In this document: piece by piece, positions 5,363-60,436 of the stretch
Layout of the letters: each line of letters begins with the position of its first letter
Position numbering within the stretch: the stretch's first letter is position 1
Source: an uncultured delta proteobacterium
GTDB taxonomy: Bacteria > Desulfobacterota > Syntrophia > Syntrophales > Smithellaceae
Direction of reading: 5' to 3'
Assembly: GCA_963753975.1 (NCBI GenBank)
Contig: CAVWEH010000001.1
Coordinates: forward strand, 224,001 to 288,000
Length of the DNA stretch: 64,000 nucleotides
Translations under genes and position numbers: made by a program
The notes under the pieces: generated by a model
What the model saw: the letters and a program-made list of their open reading frames with translations, nothing else
The model's database searches: none
Told to the model about the DNA's origin: nothing

Positions 5363-7126
5363 GTGCGTTTTGATGACAATAAGATTGAAGAAATCAAAAG
5401 CAGGGTAGATATCGTTGAGCTGGTCTCCGAATATCTTGCTTTGAAGAAAGCGGGACGGAATTTTATCGGTCTCTGCCCCTTTCATCAGGAAAAAACGGCA
5501 TCTTTCACGGTTAATCGTGAAAAACAAATATTCTACTGTTTTGGATGCGGCGAAGGCGGGAACGTTATCACTTTCCTGATGAAAATTGCCAATAAGACTT
5601 TTCCGGAAGCAATTAAAGATTTAGCGGAAAAAACGGGAGTTATTTTACCGCAGCGGCAAGTAAGCAAAGAAAGCCAGGAAAAAGATAGGCTGCGCGAAAG
5701 CATCACCGGCATTAATTTAACGGCGGCGCATCAATTTACGCGCAATCTACTCTCCCCTTTAGGCAAAGACGCTCGTGAATGCTTGACAAATAGGGGTATT
5801 GCCGAAGAAACCATCAAACAATTCCGGTTGGGCTATGCGCCCGATAGCTGGCGGTCATTGGCAAATTATTTAGAGGGCAGCGGCCTATCCCTGAAATTAG
5901 CCGAGCGAGCGGGCTTGGTTATCGCCGGCAAAGACGAAGGTTTCTACGATCGGTTTCGTGGCCGGCTGATTTTCCCCATTGAAAATATTTTTGGCGAAAC
6001 GGTGGGTTTTGGCGGCAGAGTTCTGGAAAAAGGCGAACCGAAATATCTGAATTCGCCGGAATCGCCGGTTTACAGCAAAGGGAAAATTCTATATGGTTTG
6101 AATAGGACAAAAGAGGAAATCCGCAAGCAGGGTTTTGCTCTTATTGTCGAAGGCTATTTTGATTTGATTTCTCTATGGAATGCGGGTATCGGCAATGTCG
6201 TTGCCACTTTAGGGACAGCACTGACCAGAGAACATATTGAGCTTTTAAGGCGTTACACTCCGGAAGTCGTTGCCCTTTTTGATCCGGATGAAGCAGGGAT
6301 AAAAGCCCTTAACCGCAGCCTCGAATTATTTTTGAGCATGGGAATACGGACGCGGGCGCTGATTTTGCCGGAAGATTGCGATCCGGATGATTATGTAAAA
6401 AGATACGGCAAAGATAAACTTAATGAACTTATTACTCACGCTCCGGCAATAAGTGATTACTATATTGATCATGTTTTGGGCGGCGGAAAGACTTTCGAGG
6501 ATAAACGGGAAATGATAAAAACTGCCATGGAACTTATTAATAAGATCAGCGATAAAAAAGAAAAGGATATTTTTATTAAACGGATAGCGGAAAAAACAGG
6601 CATTAATCAAGAGTTGCTGATAAAAGAAATTTATGAAAATGAAATGCAAATAAGGCCGAAAATTGGGAAAGAAAGACTACGACTTAATATTAATAATGAT
6701 TTAGTGGAAATGCATTTAATTCAGCTTCTGCTGGAGTATCCGCAGAAAACGACTCAGATCGAAAATGAAAATATATTAGGTTTTTTTCTTCAGCCGGAGC
6801 TGAAAATTCTAGGGGGAAAAATTGTTGAAACCTATAAGCTGCTTGGTTTTGTTGATATTAACATCATATTGTCTGCAGATGAAGATAAACCTTTACTCGA
6901 AAGAATACATAAATTAAGAATGGAAACACCGCTGGTTGATGATGTCAAATTAGGGAAGCTTTTTGACGATAATATCCGGCAAATTAAGAAAAAATGGTAT
7001 AAGGATCAACACAAACAAATTAAATTGAAGCTGGGCCAAGCTCAAGAAAGCGGCGATGAAGAGCTTTTGAGCACGCTTCTTCGCGAAAAAGAAAAGTTGC
7101 TAACCAAAGAAAAAGAATTACATTAA
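5363..7126 (+). CDS. dnaG: DNA primase
   Basis: CPFH..CFGC zinc finger, KYLNSPES, EGYFD, DPDEAG TOPRIM motifs. Confidence 0.98.
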   Translation: MRFDDNKIEEIKSRVDIVELVSEYLALKKAGRNFIGLCPFHQEKTASFTVNREKQIFYCFGCGEGGNVITFLMKIANKTFPEAIKDLAEKTGVILPQRQVSKESQEKDRLRESITGINLTAAHQFTRNLLSPLGKDARECLTNRGIAEETIKQFRLGYAPDSWRSLANYLEGSGLSLKLAERAGLVIAGKDEGFYDRFRGRLIFPIENIFGETVGFGGRVLEKGEPKYLNSPESPVYSKGKILYGLNRTKEEIRKQGFALIVEGYFDLISLWNAGIGNVVATLGTALTREHIELLRRYTPEVVALFDPDEAGIKALNRSLELFLSMGIRTRALILPEDCDPDDYVKRYGKDKLNELITHAPAISDYYIDHVLGGGKTFEDKREMIKTAMELINKISDKKEKDIFIKRIAEKTGINQELLIKEIYENEMQIRPKIGKERLRLNINNDLVEMHLIQLLLEYPQKTTQIENENILGFFLQPELKILGGKIVETYKLLGFVDINIILSADEDKPLLERIHKLRMETPLVDDVKLGKLFDDNIRQIKKKWYKDQHKQIKLKLGQAQESGDEELLSTLLREKEKLLTKEKELH

Positions 7127-7163: not shown

Positions 7164-8915
7164 ATGGCTAAAGAACTGCAATCCGATGAATTTAAAAAAT
7201 TACTTTCACTGGGTGAAGAAAAAGGATTTTTAACTTACGATGATGTCAACGATATGTTGCCGCCGGATGTAACCTCTTCGGATCAAATTGATGATATTAT
7301 TATACTTTTTGGAGAAAAAAATATTGATATCATTGATACAGAACAGGGTGAAAAGCTCGTGGTGAAAAAGCCCGCAGAAGATGTTGCGCCTGCTAAATTT
7401 CCGGAGACATTGGCGGCGTTGGTGCCCGGCGCCGGAAAAACTGGAGATCCAGTCAAAATGTACTTGCGCGAAATGGGCTTGGTCTCTCTTTTGAGTAGAG
7501 AAGGGGAAGTGGAAATAGCGAAAAAAATAGAAGAGGGCGCGCGCGAAACGATGTCGGCAATTTTTCGGCTGGCCGTTTCGATTAAAGAGGTTCTCAATCT
7601 TGCCGATAAGCTGCAAACTGGAGAAATTCGAATCAAAAACGTCGTCGATAATATTGAAGATGAAGAAGGTTTTGTCGAAGAGGATGAACATAAAGAGAGG
7701 GTTCTAAAGCTGATTTCCAGGATTAAACTTTTCAATGACAGAAATAACGTTTTGCTCGTTAAACTCAAATCCAAGACTATGCGTAGCAAGAAGCGTGAAT
7801 TGTTAAATGCCGAGTTGGAAAAAAACACGAAGAATATAATTACGCTTTGCCGGAAAATTCGCTTCAGTAAAAAACAAATTTATCGATTTGTTTCCCGTCT
7901 GCGTCACTATAGCGAGGAGATAGAAAGAGCAGAAAAAATTATTGCCCAATATAAAAAGGAAACCAGATTAACCCTTGCTCAATTGGAAAAAGCATGGGCG
8001 AAAATGAAAAGATCGAAGTCTGATGAAAAACGAGCGGCTAAAGAAAATCGTGTTTCCATTGATCTGCTTAAAAAAAGCAAGGTCGCCATAAATGAAGCGC
8101 ACAAAAGAATAAAGCAAATTGTGCGGGAAGTAGGTATACCGACAGCGACCCTGAAAACTGTTGTTAAGTCCATTGACGAAGGTGAACTTAAAGCAGAAAT
8201 AGCTCAAAGGAAACTTGTCGAGGCAAATTTACGCCTCGTCGTAAGCATCGCCAAGAAATACACCAATCGCGGCTTACAGTTTCTTGATCTAATTCAGGAG
8301 GGCAATATCGGCCTAATGAAGGCCGTGGATAAATTTGAGTATCAACGCGGCTATAAATTTTCTACGTATGCGACATGGTGGATTAGACAGGCCATCACAC
8401 GCGCTATTGCCGATCAAGCAAGGACAATAAGGATTCCTGTCCACATGATTGAAACAATCAATAAACTCATCCGCACTTCCCGTTATTTAGTGCAGGAATT
8501 GGGTCGCGAACCTACCCCCGAAGAAATTGCCAATAAAATGGAATATCCGTTGGAGAAAGTAAGAAAGGTATTAAAAATTGCGAAAGAGCCCATTTCCCTG
8601 GAAACTCCTATAGGCGAGGAAGAGGACAGTCATTTGGGCGATTTTATCGAAGATAAAAAGATCATGTCTCCTTCGGAAGCGACGATCAACATGGACCTGG
8701 CGGATCAAACAAGAAAAATATTGTCAACACTTACTCCTCGTGAAGAAAAAGTTTTACGTATGCGTTTTGGCATCAGTGATAGGTTAAACTCTTCGTCGGA
8801 AGACGAAAAAGTGATAGCGGATTTAATGGAAACATTGATAGAAGAGTCTGAAGTTATTGAAGCTCCGGCATCGAAAAAAACTAAGAGCAAATCACGAAAG
8901 CGTTCTTCAAAATAG
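7164..8915 (+). CDS. rpoD: RNA polymerase primary sigma factor with degenerate region 4.2
   Basis: Regions 1.1, 1.2 ([11 protein letters not shown]), 2 ([27 protein letters not shown]) and 3 are intact; follows dnaG; C-terminus diverges after MRFGI. Confidence 0.95.
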
Positions 8916-8981
8916 TATTGACAAGCTATATATTTGGGTATATCAAGGCAAGCCCTTATATACATTAGATAAGTAGACGGC

Positions 8982-9057
8982 GGGCCCATAGCTCAATTGG
9001 TAGAGCCACCGGCTCATAACCGGTAGGTCCCTGGTTCGATCCCAGGTGGGCCCACCA
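8982..9057 (+). tRNA. tRNA with CAT anticodon, probably tRNA-Ile2 (lysidine-modified)
   Basis: Cloverleaf GGGCCCA...CTCATAA...GTTCGAT...TGGGCCCACCA; position after rpoD resembles E. coli ileX; lacks the initiator GGG/CCC anticodon stem. Confidence 0.92.
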
Positions 9058-9419: not shown

Positions 9420-10139
9420 TTGAAAAGGAATTTATTATCGTTAATTGAACTTCAGGAATGTGATTCGCAATTGGTTAAGCTGCTGACCGGGAAAAAAAAT
9501 CTGCCGGAAAGGCTGGATAAACTCGACACAGAATTCTTAGCATTCAGAGATGAAATCGAACAAAATAAAAAAAAGTATGATCAGCTTAAATCTCTGCACT
9601 CGGATAAAGAAAAAGAAATTAAAAAACTCAATGAAAATAGCGCCAAAGCCAAGGAAAAGCTTCTGGAAGTCAAGAACAATAAGGAATACCATGCTATGCT
9701 TAAAGAGATTGAGGTTATCGAAGCATTATACGGCGATGTTGAAACTGAAATAATTTCCATACTCGAGGAGATGGACAAGGTGTTGCTTCTAGCAAAAAAA
9801 GATGAGGAATCTTTGAATCAGCAAAAGAAGAAATATGAAGAAGACAAGAAGAAGATGAAGGCGGAGCTCAACACAATAGATGAAGATTTTGTGAAGTGGG
9901 AGCAAAAGCGCAATGATTTGAGAAAAAAAATTCCTGGCGATCTTTTGGCCAAATATGAAAAGATCAAAAACAGAAATAACGGCATCGGCGTAATTTCTGT
10001 TTGGAAGGAAGTATGCAACGGCTGCCATATGAATATTCCACCGCAACTTTATAATGAACTGCAAAAGTCGTCGGAGTTAATCAGTTGCCCCAATTGCAAT
10101 CGAATAATTTATTTCCAAAATAGAGAAAAATCGACCTAG
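9420..10139 (+). CDS. Coiled-coil, C4-type zinc ribbon protein (DUF164 family)
   Basis: Long coiled coil then CNGCHM...CPNCNRI. Confidence 0.9.
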   Translation: MKRNLLSLIELQECDSQLVKLLTGKKNLPERLDKLDTEFLAFRDEIEQNKKKYDQLKSLHSDKEKEIKKLNENSAKAKEKLLEVKNNKEYHAMLKEIEVIEALYGDVETEIISILEEMDKVLLLAKKDEESLNQQKKKYEEDKKKMKAELNTIDEDFVKWEQKRNDLRKKIPGDLLAKYEKIKNRNNGIGVISVWKEVCNGCHMNIPPQLYNELQKSSELISCPNCNRIIYFQNREKST

Positions 10140-10144
10140 AAATT

Positions 10145-10552
10145 ATGGTTGAAGAAAATTACAGGCTGTATAGTGATGGTGCCTGCCGCGGCAATCCGGG
10201 TATTGGCGGCGCCGGCGCCGTGATAACCGACGCCGCAGGAAATGTCGTCTGGGAAGGTAAAGAATTCCTTGGCCATTGTACGAATAATATCGCCGAATAC
10301 AGAGCGCTGATTTTAGGTTTGAAAGGAGCGCTGGCTCAAGGGTATAATAATTTGAAAGTTTATTTGGATTCGGAACTTCTAGCTAGGCAAATTAACGGTT
10401 CATACCGCGTGAAAAACGAAAGTTTAAAAAATTTAATGACGGAGATTCGTAGTCTGCTTTCATCCATGGAATCGGTTCAAGTTAAACACGTCCTGCGTTC
10501 GCACAATAGCCGCGCCGATAAGCTGGCCAATATGGCGATTGATGATCATTAA
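10145..10552 (+). CDS. Ribonuclease HI family protein
   Basis: DGACRGNPG, TNNIAEY, DSEL, ADKLAN motifs. Confidence 0.93.
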   Translation: MVEENYRLYSDGACRGNPGIGGAGAVITDAAGNVVWEGKEFLGHCTNNIAEYRALILGLKGALAQGYNNLKVYLDSELLARQINGSYRVKNESLKNLMTEIRSLLSSMESVQVKHVLRSHNSRADKLANMAIDDH

Positions 10553-11930: not shown

Positions 11931-12297
11931 GGAGAAGATCAGATGATCGCTGGCAGAATTTATCTGCCGGAGGAAAGTCCGAGCTCCATAGGGCAGGATG
12001 GTCGCTAACGACGACTGGGGGCAACCCTAAGGAAAGTGCCACAGAAAACATACCGCCAGCGTATGCTGGTAAGGGTGAAAAGGCGAGGTAAGAGCTCACC
12101 GCTTTCCTGGCAACAGGAAAGGCATGGTAAACCCCATCCGGAGCAAGACCAAATAGGAGAACGTTTGAGGGCTGCCCGCTCGATGTTCTCGGGTAGCGTC
12201 GCTAGAGGCGTGAGGCAACTTACGCCCCAGATGAATGATCATCGCCGTGCTGAGGGTAACCTAAACACGGTACAGAACTCGGCTTACGATCTTCTCT
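11931..12297 (+). ncRNA. rnpB: RNase P RNA (type A)
   Basis: GAGGAAAGTCCGAGCTCC, AGTGCCACAGAAA, GGTAAACCCC, ACAGAACTCGGCTTA; P1 stem gagaagatc/gatcttctc. Confidence 0.97.
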
Positions 12298-12371
12298 TGA
12301 GCCTTTTATTTACATTCGCCGATTTAACGCTTAGACAAATGTTTACAACAGGAAAGCAAAAATTGAGCAAA

Positions 12372-59873: not shown

Positions 59874-60144
59874 CAGAAATTCCTATTGGAAACTAGATTG
59901 ATTGACAAGAACCTTCTTTTTCCGGCGTGAGAATATACTAAGAACGATCTTGCGAGTCAATGGAATTTTGACCAGAAAATATGGGGTGCGGTGTAGTTGT
60001 TTGTCGTCGGACGTGAACCGTGTTTATTACGGATTGAAGTCTTACCTTTTAATTAAGAAGGATAAAAAATGATACAAAAATGTACGGCAAATATCGCTTG
60101 ACAGACATATAAAAAGGGCATAGCTAGCTCGACAATGTTTTAAC

Positions 60145-60263
60145 AATGCCTAAATCCGTCAGCATTGGATGCGGGGGAACCAAGAGTTTCGGGGCGAATT
60201 TCTTAGCGAGTGAAGAAAGGGACACTTCCATGTCCGAGCCCGTCAGCTAACCTCGTCGGCGTA
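60145..60263 (+). promoter_or_regulatory. ydaO/yuaA-class c-di-AMP riboswitch
   Basis: AATCC..GGA..CGGGGGAACC..GGGGCGAAT..AGGG..CCGAGCCCGTCAGCTAACCTCGTCGGCG consensus blocks upstream of kdpA. Confidence 0.9.
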
Positions 60264-60436
60264 TGGGAGGATAAAAAAATGCCTGTTCTTCTTTCGTCAA
60301 TTCTACGGCGATTGTCTGTTGCTGAAAACCGTAAATCACTGTGGCAGCTTGCATATGGCCATCCTGGGCTTGATCGGCCACGTTGCGTTTAATTTTTAGC
60401 CGCGTTTTCCAAGAGGGGAAGACAAAGGAGGTTTAA

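Follow-up and report, generated by a model that had tools for sequence, protein, structure and literature searches.

How is the −35 element read in bacteria whose only primary sigma factor has lost the segment that reads it? Few DNA-reading elements of bacteria are as conserved as region 4.2 of the primary sigma, which is also the target of many activators and anti-sigma factors. The window analyzed here (the whole stretch of DNA, 64,000 nucleotides) encodes an RpoD without a region 4.2 helix-turn-helix (HTH). The original prediction, made from this stretch, described a recognition helix that had decayed in place and suggested as checks an alignment of Syntrophales RpoD C-termini, a Sigma70_r4 scan and a list of the group-1 sigma genes in the genome. 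The tail sequence it gave for positions 8775–8912 is confirmed as written. The relevant features are the following.

5363..7126, + strand: dnaG primase gene, upstream of rpoD in the usual dnaG-rpoD order
7164..8915, + strand: rpoD, 583 aa, regions 1.1–4.1 intact and 4.2 decayed; the only group-1 sigma gene of the genome
8664..8774, + strand: region 4.1 of rpoD, residues 501–537, with FGI at its end; under strong purifying selection
8775..8912, + strand: decayed region 4.2 of rpoD, 46 aa, without an HTH motif
8918..8946, + strand: TTGACA with TATCAA 17 nt downstream, likely the promoter of the tRNA gene
8982..9057, + strand: tRNA with a CAT anticodon (ARAGORN: Met)
9420..10552, + strand: C4 zinc-ribbon/CT398-like gene and RNase HI-like gene, downstream of rpoD

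The open reading frame at 7164–8915 is identified as RpoD by NF004208 (611 bits versus a cut-off of 555), falls below the TIGR02393 cut-off (336 versus 354 bits) and matches the Pfam models for regions 1.1, 1.2, 2 and 3, all above their cut-offs. The Sigma70_r4 match is confined to residues 520–536, i.e., profile positions 2–18 of 50, and its 22.9 bits lie below the cut-off of 24.1. Like other group-1 RpoDs (NF004208, TIGR02393), the protein has regions 1.1, 1.2, 2, 3 and 4.1 and the dnaG-rpoD-tRNA context; unlike them, it does not carry the HTH of region 4.2 in the same chain. It is an RpoD orthologue by descent but not a canonical four-domain member. It is also the sole group-1 match in the genome of the window (G000, a 95%-complete assembly in 6 contigs), located downstream of dnaG. 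The original prediction had considered a second intact group-1 sigma; neither tblastn nor a six-frame motif scan nor PF04545 revealed one in G000. Apart from RpoD, Sigma70_r4 is carried only by RpoH, one ECF sigma and a 94-residue protein (P0001); no RpoD-type region 4.2 other than that of P0001 was found in this genome. The zinc-ribbon and RNase HI-like genes downstream of rpoD are also seen behind intact dnaG-linked sigmas (L171, L215).

TRERIRQ is absent from all six frames over 8701–9000, as the original prediction had argued in setting a frameshift aside. Positions 8307–9011 are covered, with 43 substitutions and no gaps, by one contig of a separate sediment run (X2, record 17); at most 0.24 of the words are present in the sequencing runs, which were compared as contigs only. 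The six-frame scan, this contig and the pattern common to the RpoDs of all 29 relatives rule out a frameshift or misassembly of rpoD, and the loss is not specific to one assembly. An RNA-library contig covers 8774–8975, although coverage alone is no proof of transcription.

All 30 RpoDs compared (that of the window and 29 relatives) keep region 4.1 and have lost 4.2; the named records among the close relatives are from Smithella, Syntrophus and Syntrophales. In a larger set of C-termini from 61 Syntrophales RpoDs (56 of them distinct), examined with 14 intact controls, the loss is seen in 61 of 61, and neither TLEE[VI]G nor [TS]RER[IV]RQIE is kept in any of the 56. Among these 56, the region 4.1 motif persists in 54, RQIE in 10 and R[NS]PS in 25. 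The tail after FGI is 46–48 residues long in 48 of 56, compared with 47–49 in the controls, and this near-normal length, together with intermediates among the Syntrophales RpoDs, indicates decay in place, as originally proposed. Mean pairwise identity over the 56 sequences is 0.91 in region 4.1 and 0.34 in the tail. The decay forms a gradient, partial in some families and almost complete in the family of the window, which lies at the far end. The description of the tail as charge-reversed holds in part: across the order, the first 35 tail residues have shifted toward acidity (mean charge −2.8, range −10 to +3, versus +1.9 in intact RpoDs), but the 46-residue tail of the window itself has 10 basic and 10 acidic residues.

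When 141 genomes of the order were searched with an intact outgroup region 4, no intact orthologue was present among the 30 best loci. A region 4 at least 75% identical to this query was found in only two of the 141 genomes, G296 (89%) and G219 (75%), and the tree places both matches apart from the RpoD clade of Syntrophales. A second, weaker match in G296 resembles the decayed RpoD of its congeners, so the intact copy there may be a contaminant. A full intact region 4 is present in 57 of 59 genomes from other orders; of the exceptions, G107 has no assembled rpoD, and G042 has an RpoD lacking 4.2. At least 9 of the 141 Syntrophales encode an additional group-1/2-like sigma with an intact 4.2. 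In G041, the RpoD-like paralogues with intact region 4 number at least six (514–540 aa; at L147 and other places).

The key part, a separate region 4.2 gene on another contig, could not be seen from the window, and neither could the order-wide extent of the loss. The original guess that a partner factor serves the −35 element is supported.

G000 contig C2, 663279..663563, + strand: gene of the 94-aa protein P0001, the proposed partner of rpoD; outside the window

Residues 42–74 of P0001 match Sigma70_r4 positions 18–50, complementing the 2–18 of RpoD, so that the domains for reading −10 and −35 lie on separate genes. Residues 44–84 align without gaps to residues 570–610 of Escherichia coli RpoD, and the recognition helix, which we assume makes the −35 contacts, is kept. 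The best NCBIfam matches of P0001 are of the RpoD type, far above RpoH and ECF, and its best matches to region 4.2 of RpoD reach 69–77% identity. The equivalents of E. coli L607 and F610, which we take to be beta-flap-tip contacts, are the invariant L81 and the nearly invariant F84, and TRER[IV]RQIE is kept in 86 of 87 small proteins. Four cysteines in the N-terminal 40 residues (C7, C18, C23 and C35) are invariant in 37 small proteins and at least 90% conserved in 110, and this C4 module probably binds zinc.

A model built from the 110-sequence alignment is confident over residues 11–70 (block pLDDT 88–92), whereas that from 37 sequences is weak (pLDDT 62); the confident model has a folded N-terminal module and a short helix of the protein's own before the HTH. 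Fold searches, which barely covered residues 1–38, gave no match at E<=0.001, the best (Z 3.5) being to the HTH only. A predicted complex of the beta flap, the RpoD C-terminus and the small protein scored 0.42 versus 0.00 and 0.00 for unrelated partners, and replacing the flap with an unrelated protein gave 0.62; these scores weigh neither for nor against the complex. Relatives of the small protein are named in databases as hypothetical or as sigma factor-like helix-turn-helix DNA-binding proteins; one is on record in a named species, Syntrophus gentianae (SEM34394.1).

The small gene is present in 134 of the 141 genomes of the order (each at least 90% complete); among 40 relatives it is full in 36 and fragmentary in one more. 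Five of the misses (G030, G226, G243, G258, G293) also lack the neighboring rpsA and enoyl-CoA hydratase orthologues, their best matches to these being 30–42% identical versus 57–71% in genomes that have the small gene, and in a sixth (G291) contigs end on both sides of the locus. These six look like assembly gaps; the seventh is G264. In G000, the cmk-rpsA-sppA region ends with this gene, and so it does in 7 of 7 primary-copy loci from 5 other families; the gene faces the hydratase in 6 of these 7. Because of this shared position, it is a core gene and not a mobile one. A promoter of its own (TTGACA-N16-18-TAnnnT) is found in 47 of 79 distinct upstream regions, compared with about 3 in shuffles, and in 69 if two mismatches are allowed; exact TTGACA is present in 56.

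Divergent second copies (66–81% identity) occur outside the rpsA locus in 5 of the 141 genomes (L505, L506, L507, L508 and L509, in G237, G300, G282, G254 and G247), four of them near similar sensor-like genes; it is possible that they are alternative −35 readers. Several Syntrophales also encode a second, shorter S1-like protein of about 405 aa, 31–37% identical to RpsA (L515–L518). Just upstream of the small gene on contig C2 of G000 lie a glutaredoxin-like gene (L388:7785–8117) and a ferredoxin-thioredoxin-reductase-like gene (L002:611–883), both called from weak NCBIfam matches under the cut-off; other families have other upstream genes, and a redox link is only a lead.

The close family is small, with 11 representatives at E<1e-30; the cysteine spacing and the HTH recur in more distant proteins, and the nearest atlas clusters outside the protein's own are about 95% viral, making a phage link of the small protein possible. 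No phage record covers 80% of P0001. As for the hosts of the distant C4 plus 4.2 relatives, a degenerate DNA pattern gave 0 matches, and searches with P0122 and P0133 found, among the minority of matches inspected, apparently ordinary sigma C-termini. A 73% identical copy of the small gene is carried beside an HU-like gene on an IMG/VR viral contig (L329:2977–3264), which may be prophage or host DNA.

Promoter architecture in G000 was surveyed over 1242 upstream regions. TTGACA-N17-TAnnnT occurs upstream of genes 63 times, versus a mean of about 8 at 20 spacings outside 16–18, and TTGACA-N17-TATAAT, with at most one mismatch in the TATAAT, 34 times versus 0–6 at other spacings. There is no peak at 17 in coding DNA or for five unrelated hexamers; a sixth control, TTGTCA, does peak at 17 (87), but its one-mismatch set includes TTGACA, hence it is not independent. 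TTGA is the top 4-mer at the −35 position (57 versus 13.8 expected). In 84 pooled loci from other Syntrophales, the pair is counted 12 times at spacing 17 versus 0–6 elsewhere; 86 loci from other orders, mostly coding and too few to inform, give 4 at 17 and no peak.

In the window, exact TTGACA hexamers are indeed present at 8918, 20900 and 60098, as the original prediction had listed; a c-di-AMP riboswitch (60137–60276) lies directly downstream of the last. The first belongs to the likely tRNA promoter, whose −10 (8941–8946) lacks the last T and so goes unlisted in a consensus scan. In 29 of 30 loci inspected by eye, TTGACA is kept close to the stop codon of rpoD though the spacers diverge. 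Across the order, the −10 of this promoter often lacks its final T. The arrangement suggests that the tRNA promoter leans heavily on −35. The spacing peak and the conserved TTGACA together imply that something still reads −35: the hexamer is read in register with sigma70 region 2, RpoD having no reader, while these statistics are silent on which protein does so.

Selection has followed the same redistribution. Within genera, dN/dS for RpoD is 0.004 in regions 2–3, 0.031 in region 4.1 and 0.19 in the tail, and for the small protein 0.062 in the N-terminus and 0.002 in 4.2 (by simple counting over 8–9 non-independent pairs). The constraint usual for region 4.2 of RpoD now rests on the small gene.

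Outside the order, the small gene was found in only two of 146 other genomes of the phylum, G042 and G084 (58–59% identity), which are all the sampled genomes of their own order. It was predicted beforehand that both would have an RpoD without 4.2, and both do (578 aa, region 1.1 present). G084 has in addition an intact dnaG-linked sigma of 497 aa without a region 1.1 match, whereas the dnaG region of G042 is absent from the assembly. The 4.2-less RpoD of G084 is located away from dnaG, and its small gene is apparently, by eye, next to rRNA-like DNA (loci L171, L175 and L145 in G084; L172 and L146 in G042). In the RpoD tree the two genomes are separate from the Syntrophales clade (support 100), but a single clade is not rejected (p-AU 0.158, quick LG+G4 tree); in a 30-taxon RpoB tree G042 is not sister to G000. 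The arrangement in G042 and G084 is a second origin or a transfer. The two genes thus occur together in 134 of 141 genomes in the order and 2 of 2 outside it, counts in which kin are not independent: the co-occurrence within Syntrophales is mostly one inherited event, to which G042 and G084 add at most one more.

From these sequence comparisons, we propose that the primary sigma of Syntrophales consists of two subunits, −35 being recognized in trans by the small protein, and put the probability of this reading at about 65%. The broader claim that the 94-residue protein reads −35 in trans, be it as a subunit or as an activator, appears highly probable. RpoD (1.1–4.1) would bind core RNA polymerase and melt the −10 element but, its region 4.2 sequence being lost, would be unable to read −35. 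The 94-residue protein (C4 module, RpoD-type 4.2 and C-terminal helix) would take the sigma4 place in the holoenzyme, where it would dock on the 4.1 helices that RpoD has retained and/or on the tip of the beta flap, and would read TTGACA 17 bp upstream of −10. Region 4.1 is accordingly proposed as a docking surface for the partner and/or the flap, while the cysteine module might stabilize the HTH in place of the 4.1 helices or by packing on them. Region 4.2 of RpoD would have decayed in place after the partner took over, in keeping with the gradient among families. Several points count against a two-subunit sigma: G084 and at least 9 of the 141 genomes have intact additional sigmas, the small gene is missing from 7 of 141, distant C4 plus 4.2 relatives exist, and sigma4-only proteins (Pfam PF04545) are common in bacteria and phages, according to the available part of a recent study (bioRxiv 10.64898/2026.10.08.757525).

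Alternatively, the small protein could be a free DNA-binding activator that occupies TTGACA beforehand and then brings in the 4.2-less holoenzyme for a short time, in the manner of class II activators. With its confidently modeled N-terminal module and HTH the protein looks self-contained, and given its own helix and folded module it could act alone on DNA; its gene is probably transcribed separately from its own promoter, and the second copies in 5 of 141 genomes and the copy on the viral contig indicate that the module can move alone. We nevertheless consider this unlikely: the presumed flap-tip contacts are kept in the small protein, region 4.1 of RpoD stays almost invariant, and isolated sigma4 binds DNA only weakly without core.

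Another reading is that −35 is recognized otherwise, by the RpoD tail in a new way, by RpoH or by an unseen factor, the small protein being an unrelated regulator, e.g., a repressor or a decoy in competition for TTGACA or for the activators and anti-sigmas that bind sigma4. The tail evolves non-neutrally (dN/dS 0.19) and has R[NS]PS in 25 of 56 sequences, RpoH has a related HTH, and in G084 the small gene coexists with an intact sigma. The tail, however, has no order-wide motif (identity 0.34) while TTGACA is kept; RpoH promoters differ in −10 and spacing, unlike the observed pairing of TTGACA with TAnnnT at exactly 17; and an unrelated regulator fits poorly with a gene for which 144 of 146 genomes from other orders, the majority with intact RpoD, gave no match. 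We regard this reading as decidedly improbable.

The original prediction also entertained a sigma working without −35 recognition, i.e., an RpoD dependent on extended −10 elements or activators, with the TTGACA boxes as relics. Regions 2–3 are intact and highly conserved, the genome encodes sigma54 and 6 GAFTGA activators, and TG is present at −15/−14 in 10 of 97 promoter-like sites versus a background of 5.6%. Overall, however, there is no enrichment of TG before −10 (95 of 1663 at the extended position versus 62–103 at other offsets), and the strong N17 peak and the TTGACA kept at the tRNA promoter (29 of 30) and the small gene (56 of 79), with spacers diverging, speak against relics; −35-independence is largely refuted, and we give it very little credence. 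Finally, an assembly error or pseudogene peculiar to G000, for which one could cite the 95% completeness in 6 contigs and checks based on contigs instead of raw reads of the strain, has a negligible chance in view of the loss in 61 of 61 C-termini, the gap-free contig from a separate run and the conserved open frame and tail length.

Two-subunit sigmas are known. In the available portions of the sources, Bacillus subtilis SigO-RsoA (YvrI-YvrHa) and Sig7-Sig8 of Tn916 are described as sigma70-family domains on two cooperating polypeptides (PMC7826278, bioRxiv 10.64898/2026.10.01.756105). The Syntrophales pair resembles these, as far as so described, in having promoter-reading domains on two polypeptides, with joint action proposed. 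SigO-RsoA and Sig7-Sig8 are alternative, ECF-like factors split between sigma2 and sigma4, whereas in Syntrophales the housekeeping group-1 sigma is concerned, the break lies inside domain 4 (4.1 kept, with decay of a near-full-length 4.2), the two genes lie apart and a C4 module is attached to the 4.2 half. Membership in the SigO-RsoA family was considered and rejected, the large half being group-1 with 1.1–4.1 and the small half RpoD-type; judged by sequence, the pair would work like a split sigma yet outside that family.

In phage T4 (gp55/gp33), phage SPO1 (gp33/gp34) and, as proposed, Francisella (MtvS1/MtvS2), a small separate protein occupies the sigma4/beta-flap position. Of these, gp33 is not known to be homologous to sigma4 or to recognize −35. 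As portrayed in the portions of the sources at hand, these are phage-late or single-locus regulators, whereas the Syntrophales protein would serve ordinary TTGACA promoters; the two-subunit sigmas covered there are all alternative or phage factors in which domain 2 is separated from domain 4. The main text of bioRxiv 10.64898/2026.10.08.757525, in its available part and supplements aside, has no mention of Syntrophales, Smithella, Desulfobacterota or zinc, nor of a sigma4-only protein paired with a 4.2-less RpoD, and the "truncated RpoD" of PMC12340547 appears, from the part available, to be a laboratory construct. In the open-access literature, the scope of this search (subscription papers, e.g., the S. 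aciditrophicus genome paper, lie outside it), we came across no description of a loss of 4.2 in Syntrophales and none of a primary sigma that is split.

If the two-subunit reading is true, this would be a split housekeeping sigma, its region 4.2 naturally lost throughout the order and preserved almost unchanged in a small protein encoded elsewhere. Most promoters of these slow-growing, energy-limited syntrophs, which are important in anaerobic digestion and the methane cycle, would then be under one switch, and the system would offer a natural test of domain fission and of how modular sigma factors are. Both parts are small enough for in vitro reconstitution, making the proposal directly testable. 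The chances appear evenly balanced for the fullest version, namely that an obligate two-subunit housekeeping sigma operates in the entire order, that the −35 reader of RpoD gave way to a cysteine-liganded sigma4.2 module whose relatives are phage-type sigma4-only proteins, that the supply or the metal or redox state of the 94-residue protein can gate all −35-dependent transcription, and that G042 and G084, as another Desulfobacterota-level lineage, represent a second origin or a transfer of the arrangement.

Among other observations, the window encodes a class A RNase P RNA at 11931–12301. Dispersed intergenic repeats of about 130 and about 50 bp are present in dozens of copies (L498:1785–1921 in G250/G030 and L499:4044–4092 in G270/G291, respectively).
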